Source: a virus
Length of the DNA: 64,000 nucleotides
Strand: one strand, 5' to 3'
IMG/VR virus record: IMGVR_UViG_3300035670_000127
Span: 1 to 64,000 of that record
A program made the position numbers and the translations under genes. How positions within the stretch are numbered: the first letter of the stretch is position 1; each line of letters begins with the position of its first letter. The notes beneath the pieces were generated by a model. It had not been told where the DNA came from, did no database searches, and was given only the letters and a program-made list of their open reading frames with translations. Shown in pieces: positions 29,826 to 50,144 of this stretch.

Positions 29826-30180
29826 TTTTTATAAAAATATTTTTATATATTTTTTAGGCACGAGTTAGCTATGCTTATTTATTATAAATATAGAAATAGT
29901 ATGCACAAGCTACCCTCCATTCATTCTGGAATAATAAGCGGCAGGTGGTGCCGGGCGACCTTAATGGCAGACCGTTTTACGCACCCCATACAAAGCGATG
30001 GCGGTTATGATTACTGTGTTCTAAATTCGTTCAATATAGCCTCTAAAATTCGATTTTACCTACACGGGTGATGACAGGCACTACACAATCACTGATTTAC
30101 TGAAATTGACGAAACCTCGCGTCATTACAGCGTTTTGTGTCTAGGATACGTCAAGTGCGTGTCTATGCAAAACTCGTTTT

Positions 30181-30429
30181 TGTATAGACTGTATAGACTC
30201 TGTCATCAACCCCTAGACGGTGAAAACCCGCGCCGTTATTGGCTTGTATGGACTGTATAGGGCCAACGGGTGTTTTTTCCATTTACTTATATATCCGGCG
30301 ATATAAAATACTTTCTTCTATATTAATCATGTAATGTAGTGTATACACTCTATACAGTCCATACAAGCCTTTAAATTCGTGCCTTCCCGTTGTATAGGGT
30401 TTAAACAGGTACTCTATACACCCTATACA
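30181..30429. other. Putative replication origin: TGTAT(A/G)G iterons in inverted arms around an AT-rich core
   Basis: Iterons at 30181, 30190, 30245, 30254 and 30391 (forward) and 30350, 30359, 30414 and 30423 (reverse). A perfect 20-bp inverted repeat (30241-30260 / 30350-30369) flanks an 89-bp AT-rich spacer. The site lies just 3' of the D5 helicase gene. Confidence 0.75.
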
Positions 30430-30475
30430 GGTTTAAAGTAATGTTTTAAAGGGTTTGTTAATTGGTTTCTGTCTT

Positions 30476-32146
30476 TTATCCCTTCGCTTTCTCTTCTAAA
30501 ATCCCCAGCCAATCCGTAGTCCAGTTCCTCTCGTTTTCCATCAAATCCTGACATATCACCCGTGCGACTTTAACCGGGTGCGTAGCCAGTAATTTAGCGA
30601 CGTGGGATACCACTACCCCCTGCACCCCAGTGTGATATTCCATTGCCGTGCAAAGTTCCTCTGCCAGTTCTGCGATTGCCCCGTCAACTGATTCAGTCAC
30701 CTCACTACCCAACCCTTCGTTTTTAAATGCGTACTCTACAATTGAGTTTTCAGTGCCCTCTACTATCTTGAGTCCAATGAATCCCGACCTTGTCTTTTCG
30801 CCCGGCACCCTCATCTGCCTCTTTCTTTCTACACCGTCCACACCCAGAATGATGGTAATCACTTCCTCCAACTGAGTTGAAAAAGTATTGGTGCTAATCT
30901 GCCCCTTCCGCCCGTTTTGTTTGCACCAGCGAATGAAATTTGGATACAAATAGTTGTCTGCTAACTCAAACATATTCTCCGTACTCACACCCAAAGCACC
31001 GACTTGCACTCTCACTTCAGGTGAAAACTCGACGTTTTGAGATAACCAAGCGATAAGTGGGTTGGTTTCGATCAGGGTTGCCATTTTGGCATCTTGGGAG
31101 GATTTCACTAGGTGGTCGGTATTGCGTAATAGGCTCTCCATTCGGCTAACATCCATCCCCAATACCCAGTTCAGCAAGCCAGGTATCTCACCCTCAAAAT
31201 CCTCAGACAAATTACGCCGTTTTGAGGGGTGTACGACATGGTCAAGCCTCGCCGATATACGTCGCCGTGCAATTGCACTGGATGTATCTGAAAAATAAAT
31301 GGGTGCATTGGCCGCGATAACAACCATGCCAGTGAATGTAAACGCCTCGTCCTGCTGTTTATTTTTCACCTCCTTTCGCAGCTTATCCTGCCCAGTGAGT
31401 GATTTAAAAATGGAACCCTCCCCACCGTATTTGGATGCGTCATTAATCAGAACCAGTCTCTTACCTTGGATAGCCGCTGTCTCAAAACGGTTTTCTTCAA
31501 GGTATTTCATTGTGGTGATATAGTAATTGGGTTCGCCAATCATAGAGGTTAGCAATCGCGTTAACGTCCCTTTCCCTGACCCGCCTGGACCTACGATTTC
31601 CATATACCGTTGCAAGTCATACCGCCCCAATAACACGGCCAGAAAGAAGGCACGAATCAACTCTATCAACTCCTTATCCCCTTTCGTTGCTTCGAGTAAC
31701 CATTTATGAATGGTTGGGCACGTTGCATCCTTATTGAAATCGTAAGGCAACTGCCAGGTGATTCTATTCATAGGGTCGTGGGAGGGTGTAAATTCATGGG
31801 TGCGAATATTAAGAGTGCCATTAGGGAACGGTATGAGGTCAGGACATACTTCATTATCCCATTTATCAACGTAGAGGTCGCCCATCAGAAATTGGGTGAC
31901 ACCCTGTGCAAAATTAATACTAAAATCGGAGGTAAATCGTGAGTGGATAGCCTCCCGTATGATTTGCTGAATGTGGACTTTTTTAGCCTTGGTCCAAACG
32001 GCGTCTTGATACATCCGCCATTCGCCGGTATCTGAATCAAACGCGAGTGTGGAGGCGAAAGAGGGCGCTAATTGTCTAGCTATTTCGTTTTGGCTAGGCT
32101 TTCTAGGAGAAGCGGCAGGTTTGCCATTTTGTGACTTTTTAGACAT
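30476..32146 (-). CDS. D5/P4-alpha-type SF3 replicative helicase (no N-terminal primase domain)
   Basis: D5_N-like LIPFPNGTLNIRTHEF; Walker A GPGGSGKGT; Walker B LVLINDA; FKSLTGQD; motif C IAAN; AIARRRI; C-terminal wHTH-like LYPNFIRWCKQNG. Confidence 0.9.
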   Translation of the reverse strand: MSKKSQNGKPAASPRKPSQNEIARQLAPSFASTLAFDSDTGEWRMYQDAVWTKAKKVHIQQIIREAIHSRFTSDFSINFAQGVTQFLMGDLYVDKWDNEVCPDLIPFPNGTLNIRTHEFTPSHDPMNRITWQLPYDFNKDATCPTIHKWLLEATKGDKELIELIRAFFLAVLLGRYDLQRYMEIVGPGGSGKGTLTRLLTSMIGEPNYYITTMKYLEENRFETAAIQGKRLVLINDASKYGGEGSIFKSLTGQDKLRKEVKNKQQDEAFTFTGMVVIAANAPIYFSDTSSAIARRRISARLDHVVHPSKRRNLSEDFEGEIPGLLNWVLGMDVSRMESLLRNTDHLVKSSQDAKMATLIETNPLIAWLSQNVEFSPEVRVQVGALGVSTENMFELADNYLYPNFIRWCKQNGRKGQISTNTFSTQLEEVITIILGVDGVERKRQMRVPGEKTRSGFIGLKIVEGTENSIVEYAFKNEGLGSEVTESVDGAIAELAEELCTAMEYHTGVQGVVVSHVAKLLATHPVKVARVICQDLMENERNWTTDWLGILEEKAKG

Positions 32147-32248
32147 AATACTGTCCCTTTAGTTAAACTAAAAAATATGAAGGGCAGTATAAAGTATAAA
32201 TATGGAGGGGAGGGTACTAAATTTTTTTGAAAAAGTTTCAAAAAACGC

Positions 32249-32277
32249 TTGACAATTTAGAATTGTGTAGCTATACT
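32249..32277 (+). promoter_or_regulatory. Near-consensus sigma70 promoter for the antisense RNA
   Basis: TTGACA-17 nt-TATACT, with no ORF downstream on the + strand. Confidence 0.8.
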
Positions 32278-32283
32278 ATAGGT

Positions 32284-32396
32284 ATAGTCAATAAGAAAAG
32301 CTGATTTGCCCTTCAATCAAAAATCGGTTTTTCCTTTGACTACCCTCCTAGAACCTGACGCACTGCTTATGAAAGGAATTGCGTCAGGTTTTTTTT
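32284..32396 (+). ncRNA. Predicted ~110-nt counter-transcribed antisense RNA complementary to the helicase mRNA leader
   Basis: It has its own promoter, a long stem-loop (32285-32342, with G-U pairs favouring the + strand) and an AACCTGACGCA/TGCGTCAGGTT-U-rich terminator (32352-32396). Confidence 0.7.
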
Positions 32397-32410
32397 ATGC
32401 TTATGAACTT

Positions 32411-32439
32411 ATTATAGCATAAGTGAATCTGAAAGTCAA
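32411..32439 (-). promoter_or_regulatory. sigma70 promoter for the D5 helicase gene (~255-nt leader)
   Basis: Minus strand TTGACT-17 nt-TATAAT with a TGn extension. Confidence 0.8.
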
Positions 32440-32456
32440 GGTTTGGATTGCACAAT

Positions 32457-32495
32457 AAAAAAGCGGTTATAGCATGTCTGCTTAATCGCTTTTTT
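32457..32495. terminator. Terminator after the WD40 gene
   Basis: AAAAAAGCGGTTA..TAATCGCTTTTTT; it insulates the helicase promoter. Confidence 0.65.
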
Positions 32496-32499
32496 ACCA

Positions 32500-33468
32500 T
32501 TATTTAATCCTACCCTTTAACCCCGTCAACTTCGGTATAATCCGAAGTCTAACCTCCCCCGTTTCCACATCCCAAATGCGCACGGTTCTATCCCATGAAC
32601 CCGATGCGACGGATTTACCGTCCGGACTGAATGCCACCGAGGTCACCCAGTCACTGTGGCCTGTCAGGGTGTGAATCAATTGCCCGTCCTGAACTTCCCA
32701 AATCCGTACCGTTTTATCGTAGGAAGCGGAGGCAACTAATTCTCCATTTGGACTGAATGCGACTGAGGTGACGATGTCGGTATGACCTTGCAATTCAATT
32801 TCTATATTCTCTTGCGAGAATAGACGAACCGTGTTATCTGTACAACCCATTGCCAGAATACCATAGCAATTGAATGCAAGGGAGGTGGCATACCCAGTCA
32901 CATTGTAATTAAGAATCCGATACTCTTTTTCGACATCCCATACGGAAACCACACCGTTCCTTGATGCCGACACGAGTCTATTGCCGCTGTTATTAAATGC
33001 CACCGCCGCCACACCGACGTCGTGTCCTTTTAACTCAGTTACCTCGTCCGTAATGAGATTCCATAATTTCAAATTATGAACTGCGTTATCGACCCCGATG
33101 GCAACCACCTTGTTATCCGGACTGAATGCGACGCTTGTGATTCCACAAGGATAGCCTTCTTCTTCCACTCGAATGGGAATGGGTGTTACGCAAAATTTGG
33201 TTAGGTACTTCCCGTCTCTGTCCCGAAGCATCACGGTATTATCTCTTGACCCGCTGGCAATAATACCTAGACCATTAATAGCAATTGCCTCAATTGTAGA
33301 GTGATGACCGTCCATTTGCTGAATTATGTCGCCACTATTTATGTCGAATACACGGATTAGGCCGTCATTGCAACCAGCGACTAATTGGGAGTAAGCATTG
33401 AAGGTAATCGAGTTAATTCTATGAGTTTCACTTTCATAGAATGGTAGTCTGCATATATTGTGTGTCAT
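32500..33468 (-). CDS. WD40-repeat beta-propeller protein
   Basis: About seven GH..V.SVAFSP.G..LASAS.D.TVRIW[DE] repeats. Confidence 0.92.
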   Translation of the reverse strand: MTHNICRLPFYESETHRINSITFNAYSQLVAGCNDGLIRVFDINSGDIIQQMDGHHSTIEAIAINGLGIIASGSRDNTVMLRDRDGKYLTKFCVTPIPIRVEEEGYPCGITSVAFSPDNKVVAIGVDNAVHNLKLWNLITDEVTELKGHDVGVAAVAFNNSGNRLVSASRNGVVSVWDVEKEYRILNYNVTGYATSLAFNCYGILAMGCTDNTVRLFSQENIEIELQGHTDIVTSVAFSPNGELVASASYDKTVRIWEVQDGQLIHTLTGHSDWVTSVAFSPDGKSVASGSWDRTVRIWDVETGEVRLRIIPKLTGLKGRIK

Positions 33469-33471
33469 GTT

Positions 33472-33667
33472 TCAGTTTCCTCTGTGGAGGATAGAATTAA
33501 AGTCAATTCTCTCCTTATAATCTTGCCCGAATAAGTTTTCAACATCCTCGTTGTACCTTCTAACCAATCCCTCTACCTCCTCAATATCCTTTCTTAGTCT
33601 GTCACAGTGACATAAAAGCAGTCTCTTCTCCTCAGGAATTGCGGATTTGTTCTTGCGTCCATTTCAT
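33472..33667 (-). pseudogene. Probable frameshifted small gene
   Basis: ATG 33667 (MKWTQEQI..) stops early, but another frame reads AIPEEKRLLL..ILHRGN* to 33472. The span is 3n+1 and is bounded by near-identical junction repeats. Confidence 0.35.
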
Positions 33668-33670
33668 GTT

Positions 33671-33871
33671 TCAGTTCCCTCTTTCTGATAATTGTAAAAT
33701 ACTCGCCTGATTCTCTAATGGGCATTCCAATACCCTTTTGAGTTCTTCTTTGATTTCATCCCTACCTTGTTTTCGTTTAGCTTTTTTACGAGCCCTGTCA
33801 CCTCCTCTAATTTCAGAGTATAAGCACCTTCCATCATCTACTCTGGCAGTTCTATTTGAGTATGGTTTCAT
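33671..33871 (-). CDS. Small basic hypothetical protein
   Basis: ORF track; operon context. Confidence 0.5.
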   Translation of the reverse strand: MKPYSNRTARVDDGRCLYSEIRGGDRARKKAKRKQGRDEIKEELKRVLECPLENQASILQLSERGN

Positions 33872-34026
33872 AATTAAAGCCTAGATAGTCTTCTAATTGG
33901 CGTTCCAGTACCCTCCCTAGCCTACTAATCACGTAGCACATTCCTTGCCGACCATTTCTGTTTCACACCACTCAGGCTTTGGCAAACCGACGTGGTATCC
34001 CATGTTTATCTGTTAGCAAGAATGAT

Positions 34027-34269
34027 TTATAAATCATTATAAGCGTAGCTTGAATCAGAGGATTTATAGAGAAACCGTCGCCTCCCAGACCATGCCAACC
34101 AACATTCTAAATCGGTCAACTCTTGCCATCGACGGAGTTGTAAAAATCTACTCTGCTTACTCCAACCTGTTTGCCATCCATAATACCCAGTTCTGTTTCT
34201 GGGTTTTAAATAGGTATCTTCGTGATACATATCGTTTGAATACCAAGGTTTTGCTATAATACTCGCCAT
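34027..34269 (-). CDS. Small aromatic-rich hypothetical protein
   Basis: Strong AAGGAGG RBS. Confidence 0.45.
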   Translation of the reverse strand: MASIIAKPWYSNDMYHEDTYLKPRNRTGYYGWQTGWSKQSRFLQLRRWQELTDLECWLAWSGRRRFLYKSSDSSYAYNDL

Positions 34270-34327
34270 CCTCCTTTCCTCTTGTTAAACCCCGCCTTCG
34301 CTTTCGCAGTAGCGGGGTACTGTGTTT

Positions 34328-34933
34328 TTATTCTGGTATGCCGTAACGGCTTGTTATTTTCACCCATGCTTTCAACGCCGCGATGGCGTCGTATCGCGGG
34401 TTATGCGGACTACCGTTTGGTGGAATTACACCCTCCTTCTTTAAGAAGGAATCCACTGAATGCGGATTCTCTCCTTTTAACAGGAGAAGCGTACCTACAT
34501 CATGGATGCACATGGGTGACGGTTTTGGTGAGCTTGCATCCCAAATGTTGTATCCCTCTAGCATCCCACGGTTTTTAAGGGATTGGGCAAAATACCCCTC
34601 AGATGCAATTGTGTTAAATAACCCCGTTTCCACCGGATTTGGACAATGTGCGATGACAACGAGTTGTTCGTCTACCGTCCCTACTTGCATGTCCAACCAC
34701 CAATCTGAAAAGGATTGGTAAAGTTCGGTAGTGTCTTCCACCGTTTCAACAATCACCTGGCACTGAGGCCAAACGTTTTCTTTTACCCACTGGTCTGGCC
34801 AGTGAGTCGGCTCTTCTGCGATTCTCTTTTCAAAGAGAATTTGAGAACCATCGGTGGTGTGAGTGACAACCGATATAGCGAATGCCTTGTCACGTAAAGC
34901 AAAAGTTTCTGCGTCAATCGATATTAATTTCAT
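34328..34933 (-). CDS. DEDDh-type 3'-5' exonuclease-like protein
   Basis: ExoI ISIDAET; ExoIII HNPRYDA. Confidence 0.65.
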   Translation of the reverse strand: MKLISIDAETFALRDKAFAISVVTHTTDGSQILFEKRIAEEPTHWPDQWVKENVWPQCQVIVETVEDTTELYQSFSDWWLDMQVGTVDEQLVVIAHCPNPVETGLFNTIASEGYFAQSLKNRGMLEGYNIWDASSPKPSPMCIHDVGTLLLLKGENPHSVDSFLKKEGVIPPNGSPHNPRYDAIAALKAWVKITSRYGIPE

Positions 34934-34979
34934 TGTAGTTTCCTCTTACGTTTTGTGTTTAAAACCTTGACGATGTTTG

Positions 34980-35378
34980 TCAGCTTGGGCATGCAATTCC
35001 AATTCTGCAATAGCCTTCTGTTTCTCGTTTCTTCTCCGCGTCTCTGCATGGTGCAATGCGTCTTTCCTTTCGGCTACGCTCCATAACAAGCACCGTCAAA
35101 GCGTTTGCTAATACCCCAGCCGCCACCCTCTCAATCGTACCTACGAAAGGAGAATTGGCGACTACCTTATCTTGCAACTTAGCAATCACATCACCACCGC
35201 CTAAATGATTGCTAATCAATTGCACTGCCCTTTCAGTGGGTGTTACTCCAATCCTATCTGCCTCTGCGGCCAGGCAACCATACAACTTCGGATAAAGAGA
35301 TAATTCTAAGTTATATGGGTCTGGTAAAGTGCAATGCACAGTGCCAGCTAATCCCGTCATCTCATTGAACATATTCAC
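34980..35378 (-). CDS. Hypothetical protein
   Basis: ORF track; 4-bp overlap with the upstream gene. Confidence 0.5.
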   Translation of the reverse strand: MNMFNEMTGLAGTVHCTLPDPYNLELSLYPKLYGCLAAEADRIGVTPTERAVQLISNHLGGGDVIAKLQDKVVANSPFVGTIERVAAGVLANALTVLVMERSRKERRIAPCRDAEKKRETEGYCRIGIACPS

Positions 35379-35746
35379 ACCTCTCCATCCATTCTGTCAC
35401 TCCTGCTATACAAGGTATGATTCAGTTTCTTAAATAAGACCGTAACCTTACCATTGTTATCGTATCCTTTTTGCACGGATAGCAGGCATAAATGGATAGC
35501 AAAGCTAATATGTAACCACTTCTCCTCTGTTGGACTCAATCCTATACTTGCTGCACCCACTACCGCATAATGCGACTGAATATAATTTATCACTTGCGAT
35601 GGTAAGGTGTGCTCGTCCTCACCCATACAACATGCCCATAATTTATGTGACTGGGTAACCATATCATCCCAGTCTAATACCCCTAAGGCACCGTAAACTT
35701 CACTTGCTAATATATAATTAGCACCATAGTAATTAATTACTCGCAT
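35375..35746 (-). CDS. Hypothetical protein
   Basis: ORF track; RBS present. Confidence 0.55.
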   Translation of the reverse strand: MRVINYYGANYILASEVYGALGVLDWDDMVTQSHKLWACCMGEDEHTLPSQVINYIQSHYAVVGAASIGLSPTEEKWLHISFAIHLCLLSVQKGYDNNGKVTVLFKKLNHTLYSRSDRMDGEV

Positions 35747-35760
35747 ATCACACCCTTTCG

Positions 35761-36609
35761 TTAAAATAATCCCGTTTGCTTCGCCTCATCTTTTTTGAGG
35801 GATGGAGGCAATTCCTTACACCCAAGCACCTCTTTATATTGGGTCGCGTTAATTGGGTGGGCACTCTCAAAAACTGAGCCTAGCTGTTTCAAAAAGAAGT
35901 AAGTCCCGGCTACATGGCAAGCCGCCATTAAATCCACTGCCCAATCTAACAGCATGGGTCGCGCCTTCGCTTTTTGAGTGCGTTCTCCACCACAAACTAC
36001 CCAGTCAACCTGACCTAATTGCGACCTATCAAACTCAATATGGGTTAGCATAGGTTCAATAGATAGCCACATGTTTGTGGCACTGGAATTAACCAGTGAA
36101 TCGATTTTATACACCTCCTCTTGACTGCAAATTGTCACCCCGACCCAAAGGTTAGGGATAGCTAAATCGTAGTGTTGCAACGATTCGTGCCTCTTAGTCA
36201 GAATAAGGAACTGCTGTTGCGGCCTCGTCCTGACAAAAGCTAATACCTTATTGACCACCTCGTCGGCCATAGACTGAGTTACTTTTTCTTTGCCGCCATC
36301 TAACTTTTCATCGAAGTGATAAAGATAAGTCGCCTCATTATAAAACTCCCTTAACCCTAGCAAATCGCACATGTCGCCAATAAAAACAACTTCTTTTTTA
36401 GGCGCGTACCTGTTAGGATTATCCAACTCCCAACCTTTGATAGACGGCTTAAATCCAAATTGGCTATAATGAAGGTTGGGCATGTTAGACAGCCTCCTTT
36501 TTACGATAGCCTCTGCATAGCAGTTGTCACACCCATTAGATACTTTGACCATTCCGCAACCCGTAACTGGATTCCAAGTATGGTCACAGTATTCAATTTT
36601 CGTTGGCAT
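35761..36609 (-). CDS. Phage Gp37/Gp68 (DUF5131) family protein
   Basis: TKIEYCDHTWNPVTGC..SNGCDNCYAE, FLILTKR, WVGVT, LSIEPML, DWVVCGGE and FFLKQLG motifs. Confidence 0.88.
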   Translation of the reverse strand: MPTKIEYCDHTWNPVTGCGMVKVSNGCDNCYAEAIVKRRLSNMPNLHYSQFGFKPSIKGWELDNPNRYAPKKEVVFIGDMCDLLGLREFYNEATYLYHFDEKLDGGKEKVTQSMADEVVNKVLAFVRTRPQQQFLILTKRHESLQHYDLAIPNLWVGVTICSQEEVYKIDSLVNSSATNMWLSIEPMLTHIEFDRSQLGQVDWVVCGGERTQKAKARPMLLDWAVDLMAACHVAGTYFFLKQLGSVFESAHPINATQYKEVLGCKELPPSLKKDEAKQTGLF

Positions 36610-37009
36610 TTTCGTTACCTCCAGTGCTTAATGTCGTTAGATGCCCTGAATCTAATATGATTAGACCGGCATCATGTAGCTTAGTATCTAATTGAATGAT
36701 TTCGTCATCTGTGAATGTCTTCTTTAAGAATGACCTTACTCTGTATATAGTCCTCTTTCTTGCATCCTCTTTTCTGATAACCTCCGCCTCTTCATCCGAA
36801 TAAGGTTCGGCTCTGCAACTATCGCAACTAAATTTTGAACTAGGCATTGTATCTGTGCCATCTATTCGTCTAAACCGATGGCCGCCCGCCTCAAAATAGT
36901 TTTTGGTGACATGATTCACTACATGAATCGATTTCTGTTGGCCGTGGTATGTACTCCACTTAACCGCAATTACCTTGTCACCCCGTGATAAATCTTGGAA
37001 TTTTGTCAT
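36593..37009 (-). CDS. Hypothetical phage protein (paralogue of 37019-37408)
   Basis: Shared KF..GDKVI..H.T..F..RFR..G..PY..FL..FT.DE..L pattern. Confidence 0.7.
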   Translation of the reverse strand: MTKFQDLSRGDKVIAVKWSTYHGQQKSIHVVNHVTKNYFEAGGHRFRRIDGTDTMPSSKFSCDSCRAEPYSDEEAEVIRKEDARKRTIYRVRSFLKKTFTDDEIIQLDTKLHDAGLIILDSGHLTTLSTGGNENANEN

Positions 37010-37018
37010 TTCACCTCC

Positions 37019-37408
37019 TCAATCTTGGTCGTTATCTTTACCCAATCCCCATGCGTTAGCTTCGGTAAGTATGTCATGCAATTTCAGCAACTCATCAGGT
37101 GTGAACCTCCTTATTAGGAATCCTTTTGTTTTCGATATAGCCCGCCGTTGCCGATTTTCAGATTCAACTTCGTCGGCGAGTTCCTTTGTATAAGGAGTTG
37201 CCGAATAACTCCATGAGTCAGAAGTTCCACCTCCTTTTTCGTCACCATTATCTTTTCTAAACCGTGTCTGTGTTCCATGATAATCCACATCAAAGAAATG
37301 TGGTGTAATATGAATAACATTAGATACTGTTCTAAGACTGATGTAATTGCCGTAAGCGGTAACTATCACCTTGTCACCAACTGACACGCTCTCAAATTTA
37401 CGTTCCAT
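37019..37408 (-). CDS. Hypothetical phage protein (paralogue of 36593-37009)
   Basis: Same shared pattern as 36593-37009. Confidence 0.7.
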   Translation of the reverse strand: MERKFESVSVGDKVIVTAYGNYISLRTVSNVIHITPHFFDVDYHGTQTRFRKDNGDEKGGGTSDSWSYSATPYTKELADEVESENRQRRAISKTKGFLIRRFTPDELLKLHDILTEANAWGLGKDNDQD

Positions 37409-37475
37409 TTTAGCCTCTTAATTAAGTTAGTATCATCCTCTAATCCACTCACTAGAATGGACTAGAGGCTAACAG

Positions 37476-37811
37476 CTACCGTCTATTCGGCGACCTCCTC
37501 GGTTCAGCGACATCATGGGTCTTGTCAAAGGATTGAAAGTATTTTAAAATTGTGCCCCAATTCAAGTCTTCTTGTCTTTTTACAATTTCGGTTGCGTACT
37601 CAATCGGCATCCAAACCACTTCACCACTGCGTACCATGTTCACATCCTCGATAAGGTTGAGGTGATGGGTATTGCAAAGTACATCGATTGATCTGTATTG
37701 GTAAAACTTCGCTGTCGCATTGAGTGATACACACCACTCCAAATCGCCACCAACCATCTGTTTTTCCACCGGCAACACCTTTTGCATTGCATCGATTTTC
37801 ACTTGATTCAT
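37476..37811 (-). CDS. Hypothetical protein, weakly AntA/AntB antirepressor-like
   Basis: VSLNATAKF..LIEDVN..WMPIEYATEI loosely resembles AntA. Confidence 0.45.
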   Translation of the reverse strand: MNQVKIDAMQKVLPVEKQMVGGDLEWCVSLNATAKFYQYRSIDVLCNTHHLNLIEDVNMVRSGEVVWMPIEYATEIVKRQEDLNWGTILKYFQSFDKTHDVAEPRRSPNRR

Positions 37812-37879
37812 AATAACTGCCCTTTTAGGTTAATTTGTTAAACACACTTAGCTTATTTCACAGTTTATGCCAAAACGAA

Positions 37880-37915
37880 AAAAGCTATTGGATTCAAATA
37901 CATCCAATAGCTTTT
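37880..37915. terminator. Terminator after ftsK
   Basis: AAAAGCTATTGGAT and ATCCAATAGCTTTT. Confidence 0.75.
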
Positions 37916-37951
37916 CATTGGTAGTGTCAAGGCATGTGTCCAATTTTTGGA

Positions 37952-39991
37952 CTACGCTTTACACTTGCTAATTTCTGATTTTATATGGCCAATATACCTG
38001 TCTATAAGCCCGTCATTATCAGTGTGGTTTCTACTAAAAACAGGGGTGTGCAATCTCGTTACTTTGTCACCCGTATCTCTCAGCAATGCGTCCCCCGTTT
38101 CAATTAGCTTATTCGCAGGGAAGTTCGCCCCTCCAAAGGTATAAGCATCCTTCGGGCTGTTAAGCAAGAATGATAGCTTGGTCGACTCCTCTATCAATCT
38201 ACTGCCACTCGCGCCAAATATCCCTTTCATTGCAAACGTGCCGACGGAGTAGAAAAAAATTCCGTACTTACGGCCAGTGGTGACAATACTAGCGATAATC
38301 GACCCCAGCCGCTCCCTAGTGCCTTTATCATTAAACAAGGCACCTACCTCCTCCAATACAATAAAGATAATAGGAAGCGTGTCTTTACCCTCTTTGGTCA
38401 ACTTCGCATTTACCGTGGTGATGTGCTGACATTGATATTTCTGTAGCAATGCCACTCGATTCTGAAGCTCGTTAGCCAACTTCTCAAGCATTTTCACCGA
38501 CTCAAGGTGAGAGGTTGCCGTCCCCTGAATAAAACTATCTTTTAGCGGCGCATACTTCATTGCCGTCGCCCCGTTTATATCACTGATATAATAGGCTAAC
38601 TTGAGTCGCTTGGTCTTAATTGACCACAGCATTTGGTAAATCAAAATAGAGTGCAATAAGCTACTTTTGCCACTCCCTTTACGTCCCACGATAAGAAGGT
38701 CTTGCAGTTTAAATCCGCACTTGATAACACGGTTAGCACCTACGTCTGTGCCTAGTAAAATTGGCAATTCAACACCTTTAGGAATTGATGCAATACTCCC
38801 TTTAATTAACTCCTTAAACAACACCGTTCCCCTGGCGTCGCTTGGTTTATTCACCACGTACACGTAATGGCTATCCTGCACCTCAAAAGTGACATCGTTT
38901 TGACCTACCCCCATTAACCTAGCTATCTCCCCTTCTGCTTTACGCCACGTCTCCTGCTGGCCGATAACAGCGGAGGTGGGAGACATGGTAAAACGAGTGG
39001 TAAAGATTCCATCGTGGCGGTTAAGGTCGGTGAAGCCTAACCCTAAAGTGATTAACCCGTCCCTTATCTTATCCTCTATTACATCTCCCTTGCTAGGGTT
39101 TGGTAATTGAGTGGTTAGTTTAGGTGACACGGCCTTAACCACTTGCAACTCCTTCTTAGGAGGTGCGGCCTTAGCCACTAGCCTGACTGGTTCTGTCACT
39201 TTAGGAGGTGCGGGCATAACAGGCGTGGTCACAATGTCTGTCAATACCGGCACCTCGTTTTGAAACGGTTTAGAAGTTATCCCAATCCTCTGGTGGCTGC
39301 TGCTGATTGGGTCGGCTGTTTCCTGAGTTAACGGCATGGGGTCTGTCGTTTCTATTGCCTGAGTTCGTTGGCCTCTCACTCGGTCTGCCCATGCGGGGAG
39401 CGTGAGAGGTGGGATTTTTTTTTTAACAGCGATTTGTATTCTATTCACTACCGGCTCCATACGGTGGCCATAGAGGTCGTAGCCCAAGACAAACATGCTT
39501 AGGCAACATACCGCAATAATCGCCAATCCCCCTAACATAACAAGCGACATAGTAACCCCAAACCACTCGACTGGGTATAACCACACCTGCCCCACGATAT
39601 TCAACATATTGCCACTTCTGTCAGTAGGGATAGGCCATTGATTCTCGATAATCTTAATCACCTCCCAACCCGATATGAAAAACTGGGTAACTATAAGGCT
39701 AACGCCTCCTTTTACCAGCACCCAAATTGTTTCGCCTTGAGTAATAATGGCCTGACATGACCCTAGCCAAAAGATGATAGACGACAGGATAATAAAAGTA
39801 TCCAAATAGTATCTGCCAAATACCATCTCCAACGTCAAATAGACAGGTACTGCCACCGTACCCACATCCCCAGGTGCGACATTGAGTGTGATAGCGTCTT
39901 GCAAATGCAACATCCCTTTGATATACCAGAAAGATATATACGAGACAATTGCACAACCCGCAAGAACTTTAATCGATCCATGTTTTTCCAT
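37952..39991 (-). CDS. FtsK/SpoIIIE-family DNA translocase with N-terminal TM segments and a Pro-rich linker
   Basis: LPILLG, LLIVGRKGSGKSSLLHSIL, IVLEE, GRKYGI and ANKLIETGDALL motifs. No C-terminal gamma domain is evident. Confidence 0.85.
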   Translation of the reverse strand: MEKHGSIKVLAGCAIVSYISFWYIKGMLHLQDAITLNVAPGDVGTVAVPVYLTLEMVFGRYYLDTFIILSSIIFWLGSCQAIITQGETIWVLVKGGVSLIVTQFFISGWEVIKIIENQWPIPTDRSGNMLNIVGQVWLYPVEWFGVTMSLVMLGGLAIIAVCCLSMFVLGYDLYGHRMEPVVNRIQIAVKKKIPPLTLPAWADRVRGQRTQAIETTDPMPLTQETADPISSSHQRIGITSKPFQNEVPVLTDIVTTPVMPAPPKVTEPVRLVAKAAPPKKELQVVKAVSPKLTTQLPNPSKGDVIEDKIRDGLITLGLGFTDLNRHDGIFTTRFTMSPTSAVIGQQETWRKAEGEIARLMGVGQNDVTFEVQDSHYVYVVNKPSDARGTVLFKELIKGSIASIPKGVELPILLGTDVGANRVIKCGFKLQDLLIVGRKGSGKSSLLHSILIYQMLWSIKTKRLKLAYYISDINGATAMKYAPLKDSFIQGTATSHLESVKMLEKLANELQNRVALLQKYQCQHITTVNAKLTKEGKDTLPIIFIVLEEVGALFNDKGTRERLGSIIASIVTTGRKYGIFFYSVGTFAMKGIFGASGSRLIEESTKLSFLLNSPKDAYTFGGANFPANKLIETGDALLRDTGDKVTRLHTPVFSRNHTDNDGLIDRYIGHIKSEISKCKA

Positions 39992-40003
39992 AACCTTAAC
40001 CTC

Positions 40004-40606
40004 CTAATAGTAGTGATGAATGACATTCCCCTTGTTACCCCCTCCTCTACGGCGGTTGCCGTGCGACTGGTTAGGGCTATACACAAAGTAGGTTAGGGCA
40101 CTGATTGCCATGGCGATAGCGACTGCCAAAATAAACATAATTGCAAGGAGGTGCTCTTCGGTTGACCAAGTGGGTCTCAGTGCGACAGACTCCTCAATCA
40201 TGCGGCTTAACGTGCCGCTACCTATGTATCCACCCGCATTGACCACCTCCTTTTCATTGAGGGTATAAGAGTAGGTAAAGTAGCTGGGCATCCAACTCGT
40301 TGGAATAGAAGTGGCTTGCAAGTACACATTCCAAGCTCCCGCTATCGTCGACGCGGCGACTGCTATCACCAGAAAGACAGCAATAACAAATGCTCTCCAT
40401 ACGGGTTTTGAGAATGACAACATAATAATGAACGCGAGGGTGGTAAGCATGGGGACGACATACCCCACTCCCCCAAAAAGCAAAGTGAGTACCCTAGTTA
40501 GAGGTTCAAATGCCCCTGCATACAGGGAGGTAGTGAGACCGAGGCTTCCTACTATAACAAGCCCGTTGGCTATGGAAAAAAAATTTTTTTGCGATTTATT
40601 ACTCAT
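40004..40606 (-). CDS. Four-TM membrane protein resembling the FtsK membrane domain
   Basis: Hydrophobic helices; LLFGGVGYVVP and AGGYIGS patterns. Confidence 0.6.
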   Translation of the reverse strand: MSNKSQKNFFSIANGLVIVGSLGLTTSLYAGAFEPLTRVLTLLFGGVGYVVPMLTTLAFIIMLSFSKPVWRAFVIAVFLVIAVAASTIAGAWNVYLQATSIPTSWMPSYFTYSYTLNEKEVVNAGGYIGSGTLSRMIEESVALRPTWSTEEHLLAIMFILAVAIAMAISALTYFVYSPNQSHGNRRRGGGNKGNVIHHYY

Positions 40607-40640
40607 AAAATCCTCTTTAAAATGAAACGGTTACGGGAGG

Positions 40641-40800
40641 TTGACACAAATTGCGTTAGTTTGTGTTCGGTTGACACAGGTTGACACAGTTTGACGCAAT
40701 CTGCTATTATTTTACACAAGTTGATACAGTTTAACACAATTTGTGTCAACCTGTGTTAATTTAGCACAAATTGACGCAATCTGTGTCAACTTGTGTAAAG
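40641..40800. repeat. parC-like centromere: ~16 phased 10-bp units of TTGACACA or its inverse
   Basis: Exact 10-bp periodicity (ttgacacaaa, ttgacacagg, ttgacacagt, ttgacgcaat, ttgatacagt, ttgtgtcaac, ctgtgtcaac and others), directly upstream of the actin-like ATPase. Confidence 0.8.
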
Positions 40801-40854
40801 TATCGTATAAAAATTTTTACCTGTCAAGGTATATTAAAAAGAGGGTTTATAAAC

Positions 40855-42009
40855 ATGCAGAATTTATCTGAAATATTACTACATGGAATCACCAACGGGT
40901 TAAGAAAACCGAATATTGTTTTCGGAGGCGTCGACGCTGGGAATGGTTATTCAAAGGGGCTGTTTTACGTTTTAGTAAACAACCGCTATCAGGTGGTTGA
41001 AGTATGTATCCCATCGATAGTCGCCGCGGGTCGAATCGAGACTAATCCGTTCCTTGCTAGTAATGAGGGGATTCAAGAGAAGCTATTGCAACTAACCAGC
41101 GGTGATGGCCTCCCTTTCACAGTGGCAATGGACATGTCCGTCGATGCAAACAAAATGAATGCGCTACCAACTGGAGGAGATGTGTATCAATCCTCTATCG
41201 CACGAGGCGCATTGGTTCACGCCGTTATTACGAAAGCATTGACTAGCATCGATGCTAATTTTGGAGGTCAGGAAATCACCTGCTATTTAGCGGGTACGAC
41301 CATGGCGAGTAACTATTGGGTGGATAATGGTTTGCAAAAAAATCAGCAACGAATCGCAGAGGTTGCCGCGGCTATTGGGTCTCCTTTCAGTACCTCTAAT
41401 CAGTACCCAATTATCAATATTGCCCGTACCGAGGTCTTTGGAGAGACTTTGGCCGCAATGTTATCTGTTACCATCGATGAGAATGGAAACAATAACGGGG
41501 AGTATGCAGATGGTAGTGAAATTGTCTTTGTTGACGTCGGACATACGGACACTGTGATTTTGGTTGCGGAGATTAAAAACGGTCTCCCAAACATTATCAA
41601 ACGTCAATCTATCCGAATGGGGATAGGTAGTGGTGTGTTAGAGGTCGTAGCGCATCGCGTCGGACATGTCACCGAAAAACCAGTATCCGCCGAACTAGGT
41701 TTATTATCTCGTCCTTCGGTAAAACATCGTGGCCGGACGATAGATTTGCTTCCCTTCCAAAAGGAGGCAATGAACGGGTTAAGTCAACAAGTGCTAGGCT
41801 ACATATCCAAAGCGATAGGTAGGGGTGATGATTTTGATGCGACTTACTTGGTCGGCGGTTTCCCACAAGTCGCCATCAAGTTATTCGGGCCGGGTTACTT
41901 TACCAATTACGGGCAGATACATAACTTGCAAGTGCCCGACCTGCCCATCTATGCCAACGCACGGGGCGCATTGCGGGGGCTCATTAAACGAATTATCAAC
42001 AAGAGGTAG
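40855..42009 (+). CDS. parM: ParM/StbA-family actin-like partition ATPase
   Basis: Phosphate-1 GVDAGNGYSK; phosphate-2 FVDVGHTDT; adenosine YLVGG; connect-2 YANARG. ATG 40855 has a GAGGG RBS. Confidence 0.85.
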   Translation: MQNLSEILLHGITNGLRKPNIVFGGVDAGNGYSKGLFYVLVNNRYQVVEVCIPSIVAAGRIETNPFLASNEGIQEKLLQLTSGDGLPFTVAMDMSVDANKMNALPTGGDVYQSSIARGALVHAVITKALTSIDANFGGQEITCYLAGTTMASNYWVDNGLQKNQQRIAEVAAAIGSPFSTSNQYPIINIARTEVFGETLAAMLSVTIDENGNNNGEYADGSEIVFVDVGHTDTVILVAEIKNGLPNIIKRQSIRMGIGSGVLEVVAHRVGHVTEKPVSAELGLLSRPSVKHRGRTIDLLPFQKEAMNGLSQQVLGYISKAIGRGDDFDATYLVGGFPQVAIKLFGPGYFTNYGQIHNLQVPDLPIYANARGALRGLIKRIINKR

Positions 42010-42015
42010 GAAACG

Positions 42016-42429
42016 ATGCCTAAACAACGAATGACTAAACAAAGAAGGAAGGCGAAAGGAGCGGCCAAAGTGAGACGACTTAATTTGAATTTACATCCTG
42101 AGACAAACCAGCGACATGCGCTGATAGCACACCTATTAGACAGAATGGGTATCCCCACTTCGCAGGCAACTTACGAGGTGCTGTTAGAGTGGGCACTAGA
42201 CACAGCGAGACTGATAGCTAAGGAGAAGTATAGGCTTGATGACATGACAATTAAACACATGTCGCCAGGCGATTTACTAAGGGTAATCACAGACGATTAC
42301 GTCCCTCCAATTGCCACCGTCAAGGTGGTCCGTGAGACGACAGTTATTCCGCAAATTCCAACTGAAAGAGGACAATACAATGAAATTCAGACTGACACTA
42401 GCGACGACTTTGACATTGACAGCATTTAA
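42016..42429 (+). CDS. Putative ParR-like centromere-binding adaptor
   Basis: Directly follows parM; basic N-terminus with RHH-like RRLNLNLHP; acidic C-terminal tail DDFDIDSI. Confidence 0.6.
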   Translation: MPKQRMTKQRRKAKGAAKVRRLNLNLHPETNQRHALIAHLLDRMGIPTSQATYEVLLEWALDTARLIAKEKYRLDDMTIKHMSPGDLLRVITDDYVPPIATVKVVRETTVIPQIPTERGQYNEIQTDTSDDFDIDSI

Positions 42430-43156
42430 TGTCTATGCACAAGCGTATGACATTTGCACGACGCCGAATGGAGGTACTACCTTTTGCAAAACAGCGGCAC
42501 CTTCTAACATAATACCGCAACCCATGGCTTCGGCCAGCTTTATGCCGCAGGTGGCACCAATAACACCGCCGCCGGTTCAAATGGCAACCCCACAAGCGGC
42601 CACGGCGCCGTGGTGGTGCAGTAATGGGAGGCCACAGAATCCAACTGAAGCGACTATTTGCCAAAACCCGTCGCTACATGCGTGGGATTCAGCTTACAAC
42701 CAAGTGTGGAAGACCTTGCCGTCAAGTAGTAGGCCAACGAAGGCGACCTTAGCAGACCGCGATAAACATGGCACGGATGTAGCGGCTATCCAATCATGGT
42801 ATATGTCTGCTATTCAACAAATGCAACAACAACCAGCGACTCCCACTGCTGAGCAACCAGTCGCATTGAGTAGTGGGGCGGCAACCTTCGATTGGTGCCG
42901 GAAAAGACTCAATGAATCTGAAAGAGTCTTATGTCAAGTCGGCACCGATGAATTGGCGAACTTGGATAGACAATTGCAAGCCGCATTTAATCAAAAAAAA
43001 GCGGCTTTAAAAGGGAAGCCGGGCGAACTGGTTAGTCAGCAACGGGAGTGGATAAAGCAAAGGAACTCGATTGTATCCGCAGGTGTTTCCAACCCACAGG
43101 CGGTTCAATTACAACTAAAACAGGCTTACAGCCAACGGCTCAGTGAATTACAATAA
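42380..43156 (+). CDS. Secreted protein with two LprI (DUF1311, lysozyme-inhibitor-like) domains
   Basis: Signal peptide MKFRLTL..VYA; WWC..TEATICQNPSLHAWD and FDWC..SERVLC..LANLD..QQREWIKQRN. Confidence 0.7.
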   Translation: MKFRLTLATTLTLTAFNVYAQAYDICTTPNGGTTFCKTAAPSNIIPQPMASASFMPQVAPITPPPVQMATPQAATAPWWCSNGRPQNPTEATICQNPSLHAWDSAYNQVWKTLPSSSRPTKATLADRDKHGTDVAAIQSWYMSAIQQMQQQPATPTAEQPVALSSGAATFDWCRKRLNESERVLCQVGTDELANLDRQLQAAFNQKKAALKGKPGELVSQQREWIKQRNSIVSAGVSNPQAVQLQLKQAYSQRLSELQ

Positions 43157-43178: not shown

Positions 43179-43835
43179 ATGAATCAAACAACGAACTTAC
43201 TAATGATTATCATAACCCTCCTTTCTTTATTAATGCTTGATAACGGTGCCGGTGTACTGCAAACTTCAGCGGCATCCAAAGAGGTAAAAGCCACTCTCTA
43301 TCTGACCCAAGTAAATGCCTCCCTTAGCTACCCACAATCTAACTATATCAGCGGACTGGGTTATATCGGTGGGGGAGATATGAAGTCGTTATTAGGTAGT
43401 TATGAGGGGTATCGTAATTGCAGGTATAGTGATACCAAAGGGATTCCAACGATAGGTATTGGGTGGAATTTGGAGGCGAACCGTGGGATTACGGGTCGAT
43501 TAATTGGTGTTAGTATGCCTAATTGCATAAACGACGGGGAGGTCAACACACTGTATGAATATAGCGTCAACCGCGCTACCGACGAGTTATACGATTACCT
43601 CCCATGGGCACGTAATTTACCGGTCGGTGTGAGAGAGGTACTGGTTAGAATGTCGTTCAATATGGGGATTGGCAACGATAGCCGCGGCCTCCTTAGTTTT
43701 AAGAATACCCTGGCCATGCTGAAAAGAGGTGACTATCGAGGGGCGGCGGAAGGGTTTAGAAATTCTCAATGGTGCCGTGATGTCAAATCGCGGCGGTGCA
43801 ATGAGGAAGCGGATAGAATAGCAAGAGGAGTTTAA
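43179..43835 (+). CDS. T4-type (GH24) lysozyme with an N-terminal signal/anchor
   Basis: EGYRNCRYSDTKGIPTIGIGWNL (E-8-D-5-T triad); MSFNMG..LLSFKNTL..SQWCRDVKSRR. Confidence 0.85.
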   Translation: MNQTTNLLMIIITLLSLLMLDNGAGVLQTSAASKEVKATLYLTQVNASLSYPQSNYISGLGYIGGGDMKSLLGSYEGYRNCRYSDTKGIPTIGIGWNLEANRGITGRLIGVSMPNCINDGEVNTLYEYSVNRATDELYDYLPWARNLPVGVREVLVRMSFNMGIGNDSRGLLSFKNTLAMLKRGDYRGAAEGFRNSQWCRDVKSRRCNEEADRIARGV

Positions 43836-46138: not shown

Positions 46139-46162
46139 GTAACACCTTGTTAATTTTTGAGG

Positions 46163-49768: not shown

Positions 49769-50144
49769 TGTATAGACTGTATGCAGTCGGTTAATCGAAC
49801 CCCATACACGGAACCCTGCATATCTACAAGCCCCTATCCGTGCGGGTTTCCACCGTATAGGGTTCGATAATGGAGTGCATACGGTCCTATACAAATTCAC
49901 TTTTGTATTGGCCAACCCCATACTGGCAGTTTCATAAGAAACCTAGCAACGGCGCGGTGTTTAGTTAAATTAACCTCGCTGTCAGTGCGTATAGGGTTGT
50001 ATGCCGTAGTGGGTCTGTATAGACTGAAAACAGGATTTTACCGAATCCTAGAGTGCCCTGTTTATGCGGGTCTAGGGGATTCGATAATTGCGTTTAAAGA
50101 CCCTATTTTTACCAAACCCTATACAAGTCTATACAGTCTATACA
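49769..50144. repeat. Second cluster of TGTATAG-family iterons
   Basis: Copies at 49769, 49778, 49802, 49854, 49887, 49988, 49998, 50016, 50119, 50129 and 50138, in both orientations. Confidence 0.75.

Follow-up and report, generated by a model that had tools for sequence, protein, structure and literature searches.

A candidate plasmid prophage of freshwater combining an actin-type partition cassette with a P4-family helicase and an FtsK-like ATPase

Can a tailed phage without a route of integration be kept by its host as a plasmid, or do plasmid-like genes serve such a phage in another way? The question is raised by a 64,000-nucleotide stretch of viral DNA (the window; bases 1-64000 of one 81,363-bp IMG/VR record, IMGVR_UViG_3300035670_000127, the genome being labelled G000), in which a P4-family helicase gene with a putative antisense RNA, iteron-like repeats, a ParM/ParR/parC cassette and a gene for an FtsK-like ATPase lie together at positions 30181-42429. 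In the original prediction, made from the letters of the window, this assembly had been taken for the maintenance module of an extrachromosomal prophage segregated by an actin-like filament. The reading favoured here is that the stretch represents the replication-and-segregation core of a complete tailed phage, most likely a low-copy plasmid prophage in a freshwater host, an account held with about as much doubt as confidence; the element is taken for a plasmid-like replicon because it combines dependence on a host polymerase, an initiator-type helicase limited by antisense RNA, a type II partition cassette and the lack of any integration route.

A closed map without integration enzymes

In IMG/VR the record is assigned to the topology class 'linear', with a CheckV completeness estimate of 92%; its first and last 145 bases are identical except for one mismatch. 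In an independent Logan assembly of run X1, which is probably the source sample of the record, a single contig of 81,245 bp spans the ends of the record uninterrupted, its own break lying at a different place (genome ~73,083-73,109, with a 27-bp overlap). Because of the terminal overlap and of the contig broken elsewhere and crossing the record's ends, the map of G000 is a closed circle of 81,218 bp without host flanks; closure of this kind fits a true circle and circularly permuted virion DNA alike. The inspection of the full contig, which had been proposed in advance as a check, found circular closure and, in the self-closing genome, no host flanks, att sites, Mu ends, integrase or transposase. 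The lack of integrase and transposase first remarked in the window extends to the whole 81,363-bp record, in which six-frame profile searches returned 0 matches at E<=1 to Phage_integrase (PF00589), rve (PF00665) and Resolvase (PF00239), the positive controls for the integration families being matched in 11-14 of the 14 control genomes; equally, 0 matches at E<=1 were returned for DNA_pol_A, DNA_pol_B and DNA_pol3_alpha, the control genomes again behaving as expected.

The circular map that carries the partition cassette and the P4-family helicase also carries a virion and packaging set, composed of TerL (Terminase_6N), portal (PF06074, E 1e-71), MuF, capsid, tail terminator and tape measure. 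The description of the head genes as being of Mu/D3112 type holds for portal and MuF and fails for the capsid, which is of the lambda gpE type (PF03864), and for TerL; since only portal and MuF are of Mu type, a missing transposase is unsurprising. Replication and recombination genes comprise a DnaN clamp, a DnaG-type zinc-ribbon primase, a single-stranded DNA-binding protein (SSB), a PIF1 helicase, a PD-(D/E)XK exonuclease and a Rad52-like annealase, the first two being placed as follows (lengths and positions below are in amino acids, aa, and nucleotides, nt):

L001 3841-4995, plus strand: beta-clamp DnaN, accompanied by a phage DnaG-type primase and SSB but by no polymerase of family A, B or C
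Genome 75949-76953, strand not stated: DnaG-type zinc-ribbon primase, separate from the helicase gene

Replication of the phage presumably hijacks the core of host DNA polymerase III (Pol III), which would carry out DNA synthesis after recruitment by the phage beta-clamp, DnaG-type primase and SSB.

The partition cassette and its two arrays

The cassette, the genes on both sides of it and the second array are arranged as follows:

37952..39991, minus strand: FtsK/SpoIIIE-like ATPase, 679 aa, with the Walker A motif GRKGSGKSS, a Pro-rich linker and N-terminal hydrophobic segments
40004..40606, minus strand: TM200, a polytopic membrane protein of 200 aa, between the FtsK-like gene and parC
40641..40800, no strand: parC1, 16 phased 10-bp units of the TTGACACAA type, in both orientations
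40855..42009, plus strand: ParM-like actin-family ATPase, 384 aa, with matches to PF21522, PHROG and PLSDB
42016..42429, plus strand: ParR-like adaptor candidate, 137 aa, with a basic N-terminus, RRLNLNL and a conserved acidic tail, DDFDIDSI
42380..43156, plus strand: secreted LprI-like protein (lysozyme-inhibitor family), overlapping the end of parR by 50 nt
43179..43835, plus strand: T4-type lysozyme with a hydrophobic N-terminal signal or anchor, 22 nt after the lprI-like gene
43838..44743, plus strand: 301-aa membrane protein, 2 nt after the lysozyme gene, the last gene of the apparent parM-parR-lprI-lysozyme operon
Genome 77305-77474, strand not stated: parC2, an array of the same unit type as parC1, 36.7 kb from it

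The presence of a ParM/ParR/parC cassette, as originally proposed, is borne out by the PF21522 match, the ParR-like open reading frame (ORF) and the 16-unit parC, with the start of parM moved to ATG 40855, which lies behind an AGAGGG ribosome-binding site, and away from TTG 40771. PF21522 (MreB-like_C) is matched by 6 of 6 members of the ParM family at 31.5-31.7 bits against a cut-off of 27.8, and phrog_691 'partition protein' at E 2.6e-5 over residues 52-400; all 15 tblastn matches in PLSDB are annotated ParM/StbA (identity 24-27%), and the neighbours in the ESM Atlas all belong to ALP/ParM/StbA families. In the family alignment the residues D27, G29, N30 and K34, D227, G229, H230 and D232, and G334 and G335 are invariant; the motifs GVDAGNGYSKG, VDVGHTDT and LVGGFPQ fall on such invariant columns, and are taken here to be the phosphate 1, phosphate 2 and adenosine motifs of the actin fold. 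No NCBIfam model is matched, nothing meaningful was retrieved when the ParM profile was compared with PDB sequences, and among 1.84 billion representatives the profile finds no more than 53 clusters at E<=1e-3, of which 7 are left at E<=1e-30; ParM forms an isolated branch of the actin-like segregation proteins.

The ParR-like candidate resembles what would be expected of an adaptor in its position, its size, its basic N-terminus with RRLNLNL and its acidic C-terminal tail. Gene callers give parR a length of 94 aa in this record, the longer form being conserved in homologues; these amount to 22 clusters, none with a Pfam domain or a name beyond 'hypothetical protein', and the candidate itself has no match in Pfam, NCBIfam, PDB sequences or the ESM Atlas, so far as sequence tells an orphan family. 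In parC1, 11 units match GTTGACACAA with at most two mismatches, against a background of ~1 per kb; these 11, all in 10-bp phase, are among 68 such loose matches in the window and are confined to the 161 bp of the array. Embedded in parC1 lies the best promoter of the region (40681-40710; TTGACA-18-TATTAT, preceded by TG, 11/12), and at its right edge a leftward promoter-like site (40827-40799) faces TM200 and the FtsK-like gene. The second array, parC2, has a ProQ_C-like gene on one side and a small Hjc-like ORF on the other; no promoter-like site was found in it on the plus (coding) strand. In the favoured reading, ParR would coat the 10-bp arrays parC1 and parC2, its acidic C-terminal tail would capture the ends of ParM filaments, and filament growth would separate sister genomes as in R1 ParMRC; bound to parC1, ParR would moreover repress the two promoters in and beside the array, and so set the levels of parMR and of the divergent TM200-ftsK-like operon.

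R1-type ParMRC systems (also those of pSK41 and pB171 par1) are type II partition systems, in which the growth of the filament separates sister plasmids. The G000 cassette shares with that of R1 the order parC, parM, parR, an array of ~10-11-bp repeats containing the operon promoter, a small adaptor (in G000 a candidate) whose N-terminus is basic and which ends in a tail, and an ATPase, in G000 of predicted actin fold, with phosphate and adenosine motifs; it differs in that ParM is just 24-27% identical to the annotated plasmid proteins and matches no NCBIfam model, in that ParR lies outside the described families, in the second, promoter-less array 36.7 kb away, and in the organisation of the locus, whose operon continues into secreted and lysis-type genes and whose control region is shared with a divergent FtsK-like operon. 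More than one centromere site per molecule is known from the linear plasmid prophage N15, which has dispersed centromeres, and from pB171 par2, with parC1 and parC2; both are ParA/SopA-type (type I) systems, whereas that of G000 is of type II (ParMRC). A non-exhaustive full-text literature search turned up no type II system described as having two centromere arrays far apart or a dedicated FtsK-like partner.

Relatives of the locus were reached through the ParM family, which led to eight short metagenome loci and two IMG/VR loci; the latter two were found by the ParM alignment alone, no close relative in IMG/VR being returned by ParM, P0005, the helicase or the FtsK-like protein as single queries, and a megablast of 30000-42500 against phage and plasmid collections gave no match. 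All relatives of sufficient length display the order FtsK-like, TM200, [array], ParM, ParR, LprI-like; among the assessable loci the FtsK-like gene is found in 4/4, TM200 in 5/5, ParR in 6/6 and the LprI-like gene in 5/5, and all of them recur in the related genome G001. Arrays analogous to parC1 precede ParM in L002, L005, L006 and G001. This last genome (83,384 bp, unclosed, 91% complete) keeps the gene order of G000 except for an inverted structural block, with identities of 46% for ParM, 44% for ParR, 53-54% for the FtsK-like protein, TM200 and the helicase, and 81% for the capsid; here too 0 matches to PF00589, PF00665 and PF00239 (integrase, rve, resolvase) were obtained at E<=1. Its parC1 carries the same embedded promoter, and its parC2 occupies the same position, between the ProQ_C-like and Hjc-like homologues. 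The Synechococcus phage S-EIVl, whose helicase is 28% identical, was considered as a further relative and dropped, its family A polymerase and its fused 880-aa primase being different.

The comparison of the two genomes provides the strongest evidence for a function of the repeats. Words of the G000 type occur 9 + 8 times in the two parC arrays of G000 and 0 + 0 times in those of G001, while words of the G001 type occur 5 + 7 times in the arrays of G001 and 0 + 0 times in those of G000; likewise, the iteron core (see below) is TGTATAGAC in G000 and GACCTATAC in G001, the change extending to all clusters. Concerted change of both families is expected if each is read by one diverging protein, and the co-variation of the words at both arrays, alongside a ParR that is 44% identical, may serve as a proxy for the binding of the adaptor to its repeats; since both families have changed in concert at all sites, the repeats are likely to be functional.

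Two observations touch parC2 and its surroundings. In run X5 a 16-letter insertion cluster is present inside parC2 (L001 13429-13436), and the length of the array therefore varies between strains. Two Phage_ProQ_C_like proteins are encoded in G000 (window 37019-37408, minus strand, and L001 12946-13308, plus strand), one scoring 31.8 bits, above the Pfam cut-off, and the other 17.8 bits, below it; the second gene ends exactly at parC2. A duplicated segment, considered on account of this pair, was rejected, the two proteins having no detectable mutual similarity (E 0.014).

The helicase, its putative antisense RNA and the iteron elements

The elements that would start and limit replication are the following:

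30476..32146, minus strand: P4-family / D5-type superfamily 3 (SF3) helicase, 556 aa, with the Walker A motif GPGGSGKGT (Pfam, NCBIfam)
32147..32439, minus strand: helicase leader region, with an untranslated leader of ~258 nt
32439-32411, minus strand: helicase promoter TTGACT-17-TATAAT, an 11/12 sigma70-like match
32249..32398, plus strand: putative antisense small RNA of ~112 nt, with two hairpins, the last one together with a U-run
32249-32277, plus strand: antisense promoter TTGACA-17-TATACT, 11/12 sigma70-like, convergent with the helicase promoter
30181..30429, no strand: iteron element c1, an AT-rich core flanked by 9-bp TGTATAGAC-type repeats in inverted sets
49769..50144, no strand: iteron element c2, between the portal and MuF genes, a longer and more diverged copy

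The earlier assignment of a D5/SF3 helicase stands, D5_N (62.4 bits) and DUF5906 (55.4 bits) both being above their Pfam cut-offs, as is NCBIfam TIGR01613 'phage/plasmid primase, P4 family' (141.2 bits against 108.7); Pox_D5, at 19.3 bits, remains under its cut-off of 21.4. The nearest solved chain is 7ola, 'DNA primase' (E 1.4e-14). No primase family is among the Pfam matches of the 556-aa protein, and its PHROG matches are confined to the C-terminal parts of longer 'DNA primase' profiles. The satellite phage-plasmid P4 employs an alpha primase-helicase with a fused N-terminal primase domain, together with ori and crr, two separate regions in which the alpha protein binds one and the same octamer. 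The likeness of G000 to P4 consists in a helicase passing TIGR01613, in several separate regions of short repeats facing either way, and in a plausible capacity for plasmid replication; the differences are that the G000 helicase has no fused primase domain, the DnaG-type primase being encoded separately, that 17-20 kb, and not just a few kb, separate the repeat clusters, and that control would be exerted by an antisense RNA against the helicase leader.

The antisense arrangement, which had also been predicted, is present: two convergent promoters, each with 11/12 matches, surround an RNA whose predicted fold (115 nt) has a free energy of -40.4 kcal/mol and a z-score of -7.7, with 0/200 shuffles as stable. 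Over its whole length the RNA is complementary to the 5' portion of the helicase leader, at a distance of 138-249 nt from the start codon; because of this distance, any translational control by the antisense RNA would be indirect. No Rfam family was matched by it in a scan of the genome, whose sole match is a hammerhead elsewhere. In G001 the arrangement is kept despite sequence divergence, with convergent promoters (that of the helicase at L014 9038-9010, the antisense one 11/12), two hairpins and a fold z-score of -3.1. Control of plasmid replication genes by countertranscribed RNAs is known from R1 (CopA), IncB/IncI (RNAI) and pT181, and G000 appears to share with these systems the convergent promoters, a stem-loop RNA of ~110 nt with its own terminator and full complementarity to the leader of a replication gene; it differs in that the target is a phage SF3 helicase, in the distance of the pairing site from the start codon and in the lack of an Rfam family. 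In the favoured reading a constitutive RNA of ~112 nt would pair with the 5' part of the ~258-nt leader and limit the supply of helicase, in a manner resembling plasmid copy control, and replication would be started by the helicase at or near the iteron element that adjoins its gene.

Whether that element is an origin is a separate question. In the window the word TGTATAGR is found 15 times, where 3.43 occurrences are expected (standard deviation 2.0), a count reached by 0/100 shuffles, with seven copies in c1 and six more in c2. The repeats at 30181-30429 that had been called an iteron origin do exceed chance; they prove, at the same time, to be one of three dispersed paralogous elements, the others being c2 and c3 (genome 67152-67733, beyond the window), and the origin claim has a live rival in an operator role. 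Both c2 and c3 had been missed originally, as had parC2 and the overlap of parR with the run of lprI-like, lysozyme and membrane-protein genes. Just 3' of the helicase gene, c1 has imperfect inverted arms of 80 nt (30181-30260 and 30350-30429), and it is homologous to c3 over ~270 bp (genome 67152-67430 in c3), the repeat sets following one another in the same order in both, about an AT-rich centre. In G001, three clusters are again found, two at conserved positions (3' of the helicase, 5' of dnaN) and the third 5' of the tape measure; no intergenic iteron region 3' of the helicase is present in L004, within the 20.8 kb analysed.

The anatomy of the repeats and their position beside the helicase gene point to an origin, for which c1 is the candidate; the three dispersed, mostly operon-proximal sites point to operators, and the two readings are about evenly balanced. 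According to the latter, the TGTATAGAC-type 'iterons' would be operator or enhancer sites of one phage transcription factor acting on three operons, the true origin being elsewhere or undefined, a proposal to which we give a little less than an even chance. It accounts for the three dispersed clusters of G000 and for the three of G001 (6544-7023, 36810-37299 and 79363-79613), where the core has been altered in concert to GACCTATAC, as well as for the intergenic location of most clusters at operon heads (5' of dnaN in both genomes, of the tape measure in G001 and of MuF in G000), and the phage encodes a sigma54-type activator with a helix-turn-helix (HTH). It is less easily reconciled with the classic origin anatomy of c1 and c3, in which inverted repeat sets flank an AT-rich core, with the cluster that in G000 and G001 alike borders the SF3 helicase gene on its 3' side, or with the precedent of P4, in which dispersal of the octamer over ori and crr is compatible with an origin role; nor does any cluster have a -24/-12 promoter beside it, 0/17 loose TGGCAC-N5-TTGCW-type matches lying near one. 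Sigma54 promoters adjoining the clusters were accordingly rejected, motif scans of the genome having found none.

Other repeats of G001 are of a different kind. A 27-bp repeat at 5175-5260 was considered as a set of iterons and set aside as a coding repeat, lying inside an ORF with a 9-codon period. Between a G001 iteron cluster and the next gene (L014 6100-6430) there are four copies of an AT-rich repeat of ~87 bp, each with words ATTATTGCCATGCCCTATATATA, which have no counterpart in G000. Within the replication module of G000 a WD40 beta-propeller protein of 322 aa is encoded (window 32500-33468, minus strand; E 1.7e-57), which has no counterpart in the matching stretches of L004 and G001.

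Lifestyle and remaining gene content

The FtsK-like protein of the original prediction is confirmed by matches to PF01580 (42.8 bits against a cut-off of 24, E 5e-11) and to phrog_1358 (E 1.2e-19); the nearest solved chain is 2iuu, Pseudomonas aeruginosa FtsK (E 1e-4). Hydrophobic segments at residues 65-84, 88-107 and 141-175, located by a crude Kyte-Doolittle scan, fit an N-terminal membrane anchor. With FtsK/SpoIIIE the protein shares N-terminal membrane segments, a Pro-rich linker and a RecA-type motor with PF01580 above cut-off; it differs in the weakness of the match, in its being encoded by a phage, in its association with a ParMRC locus and a dedicated polytopic partner in the membrane, and in the gamma domain, the sequence-reading (KOPS-reading) winged helix, which is not among its Pfam matches at E<=0.01, the protein ending ~20 residues past the motor. 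TM200 belongs to no known family in Pfam, PHROGs or NCBIfam. Of all features of the locus, the one with the least precedent is the conserved linkage by which ParMRC shares a control region with TM200 and a membrane FtsK-like pump; its role may be septal clearance, substitution for dimer resolution, a membrane docking site or DNA transfer. In the plasmid-prophage reading, the membrane-anchored pump and its polytopic partner would clear or translocate phage DNA trapped at the division septum, and might compensate for the missing dimer-resolution enzyme.

A bolder form of this reading, which we regard as improbable, is that a lineage of freshwater siphophages with giant tails (tape measures of 7,052 and 7,676 aa) gave up integration and lives as low-copy plasmids by means of a previously undescribed segregation machine; in it ParM, acting on two centromere arrays on roughly opposite arcs of the circle, would be mechanically coupled, through the shared ParR-controlled region, to the FtsK-like pump and its polytopic partner, so that filament pushing and septal pumping would form one system replacing dimer resolution. 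Less credible still, and in our estimate very unlikely, is a module by which phage DNA would pass from one cell to an adjoining one, in the style of Streptomyces TraB-type transfer, or across the septa of a filamentous host, with the FtsK-like pump, TM200, ParMRC, the LprI-like protein and the lysozyme as its parts. Such transfer would suit the fact that ParMR is linked in all assessable relatives to a wall-active enzyme, a membrane protein and a membrane FtsK-like ATPase, and the one divergent control region that these genes share; the full virion and packaging set (TerL, portal, capsid, tape measure) speaks against it, a lysis cassette is the simpler explanation of the lysozyme and the membrane protein, no host was found for the phage, and no relaxase, oriT or clt-like evidence turned up, none having been specifically sought.

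The genes behind parR bear on the lifestyle more directly. No terminator-like site is listed on the plus strand between 40855 and 44743, so that parMR appears, from the arrangement of the genes, to be co-operonic with probable lysis genes, and reading into lysis-type genes suits expression in the lytic cycle better than prophage maintenance. That an actin system implies partition, as had been assumed, does not follow: in the integrating prophage CGP3 of Corynebacterium glutamicum, an actin-like protein (AlpC), its adaptor (AlpA) and a repeat array (alpS) serve phage replication (PMC4446434). The G000 phage might correspondingly be virulent, or replicate only after infection or induction, the ParM filaments moving replicating genomes, by way of ParR and the two arrays, to the membrane or the poles for replication and packaging, with the FtsK-like protein and TM200 as a docking or handling site and with no plasmid maintenance at all; we consider this possible, if distinctly on the doubtful side. 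Its case is made by the requirement, for efficient replication of CGP3 DNA, of AlpC/AlpA and 24 alpS repeats in the promoter region (PMC4446434), by an explicit warning in PMC8026635 that partition proteins alone do not prove plasmid life, and by features of the phage itself, namely the contiguity of parMR with the probable lysis genes, the lack of a repressor or other lysogeny marker among the scanned ORFs, the presence of nucleotide-metabolism genes, and the origin of the record from a virus collection and of the runs with this DNA from water metagenomes. The antisense RNA is hard to square with it, since an RNA from a constitutive-looking promoter that would throttle the helicase, and that is kept in G001, looks copy-limiting rather than suited to runaway lytic replication; replication relies on a host polymerase; there is no integrase here, unlike in the integrated CGP3; and parC2, promoter-less and far from parMR, looks like a dedicated centromere rather than an operator. 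Likeness to CGP3 is found in a phage actin-like protein and a co-transcribed adaptor, in G000 a candidate, that binds, or in G000 would bind, many short repeats of its own promoter region; CGP3 differs in being integrated, with AlpAC acting after induction in support of replication, in the order adaptor then actin and in the looseness of its repeats (TTAAnnG, not 10-bp phased), and neither a second array nor an FtsK-like partner is described in the consulted part of PMC4446434.

The plasmid-prophage reading has a precedent of its own, because ParM-like proteins with ribbon-helix-helix (RHH) partners are tabulated for the Bacillus plasmid prophages IEBH, Bp8p-C and vB_BtS_B83 in PMC8026635. These cases were overlooked when the phage was contrasted with P1 and N15, whose partition is of the ParA/SopA type, and the concept that had been put forward as possibly undescribed is already known from Bacillus: a tailed phage with actin-type partition and no integrase is an already known kind of element. 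With the Bacillus phages (IEBH, vB_BtS_B83 and pBtic235-like ones) as they appear in that source, G000 shares the tailed-phage nature, a type II (actin) partition cassette and a putative centromere; theirs are known hosts, plasmid carriage demonstrated for several, and mostly recombinases of the Xer type, whereas the G000 lineage is without a recombinase or a known host and has, beyond what they have, a pair of centromere arrays, a pump resembling FtsK and a P4-type helicase accompanied by a putative antisense RNA. What is new here is an orphan ParR and an isolated branch of ParM, as far as their sequences indicate, a pair of centromere arrays lying far apart, the FtsK-like partner, the putative antisense control of a P4-type helicase, three dispersed iteron elements and an uncultured freshwater lineage with extremely long tape measures.

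Several results weigh against plasmid life. No repressor or lysogeny switch was found, HTH_3 reaching only 11.8 bits inside the sigma54 activator, and no lysogeny-related family was met among the scanned small ORFs (Pfam, PHROGs), which is weak evidence because many of these ORFs match nothing; no toxin-antitoxin (addiction) or dimer-resolution gene was found in the genome. Virion DNA that is circularly permuted through headful packaging would yield a circular map just as well. A thymidylate-synthase-like gene is present, and nucleotide-metabolism genes are commoner in virulent phages. In L004, part of an 82,480-bp contig of which 20.8 kb were analysed, there is no obvious 10-bp array upstream of ParM. 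Relatives of ParM were absent from 50,697 phage records (tblastn) and from one genome per GTDB species, the latter in a pattern-based search of low sensitivity (single protein, alignment), and all 20 runs with this DNA, from 16 studies, are represented by metagenome contigs, the habitat for runs X6-X20 resting on run labels only. The original idea of an extrachromosomal prophage segregated by an actin-like filament is thus upheld in part, by the closure, the missing integration enzyme and the conserved module, and weakened by the failure to find a repressor, addiction or dimer-resolution genes or a host; on balance, we infer a plasmid lifestyle at the strength given at the outset.

If that lifestyle is true, phage-plasmids with actin-type partition would no longer be a speciality of Bacillus and would extend to an abundant freshwater lineage (runs from 16 studies), which would be a compact natural test bed for the way in which a type II system copes with two centromeres on a single molecule of 81 kb, for an FtsK-like pump as a dedicated partition partner and for the copy-limiting of an SF3 helicase replicon by antisense RNA; if the CGP3-like alternative is true, the phage would provide a second instance, and a far better defined one, in which viral replication in bacteria is organised by a cytoskeleton that the phage itself encodes. 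On either reading, the concerted change of the repeats supplies specificity pairs, ParR with parC and a still unnamed protein with the iterons.

Further observations concern the rest of the genome. An LprI-family inhibitor gene stands directly before the lysozyme gene, as it also does in L004 and G001; lysis cassettes of phages do not usually contain such a pairing of inhibitor and enzyme. The sigma54 enhancer-binding protein (window 46943-48301, plus strand) matches Sigma54_activat at E 8e-62 and has a Fis-type HTH, its G001 homologue being 47% identical; no canonical -24/-12 (sigma54) promoter is found anywhere in the genome, which has four TGGCAY-N6-TGAA sites, at 37872(-), 46645(-), 72828(-) and 72950(+). 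In the divergent region before the activator gene, a full-length type II hammerhead ribozyme (window 46160-46228, minus strand; Rfam RF02276, 48.6 bits against a gathering score of 37) is located just upstream of a 145-aa ORF (45743-46180), whose start it overlaps by ~20 nt.

A protein with a ParB-like N-terminal domain (L001 5432-6049, plus strand) matches phrog_620 at E 1e-17 and has no Pfam match; its gene lies upstream of a B12-type radical SAM gene and TerL, three paralogues are present in G001, and it may be related to packaging rather than to partition. The tape measure is encoded by a single ORF of 7,052 aa (window 1528-22686, minus strand) occupying 26% of the genome, with an N-terminal PhageMin_Tail domain (E 1.5e-42) and an SLT transglycosylase; its length implies an exceptionally long tail, and the G001 counterpart has 7,676 aa. 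Directly after a gap of ~900 bp upstream of the tape-measure gene, an RRXRR + HNH endonuclease is encoded (window 23600-24496, plus strand). In lake-water metagenomes of 2025 (X3, X5), strains 90-99% identical over L001 1-17363 are present, at contig depths of ~20-40.

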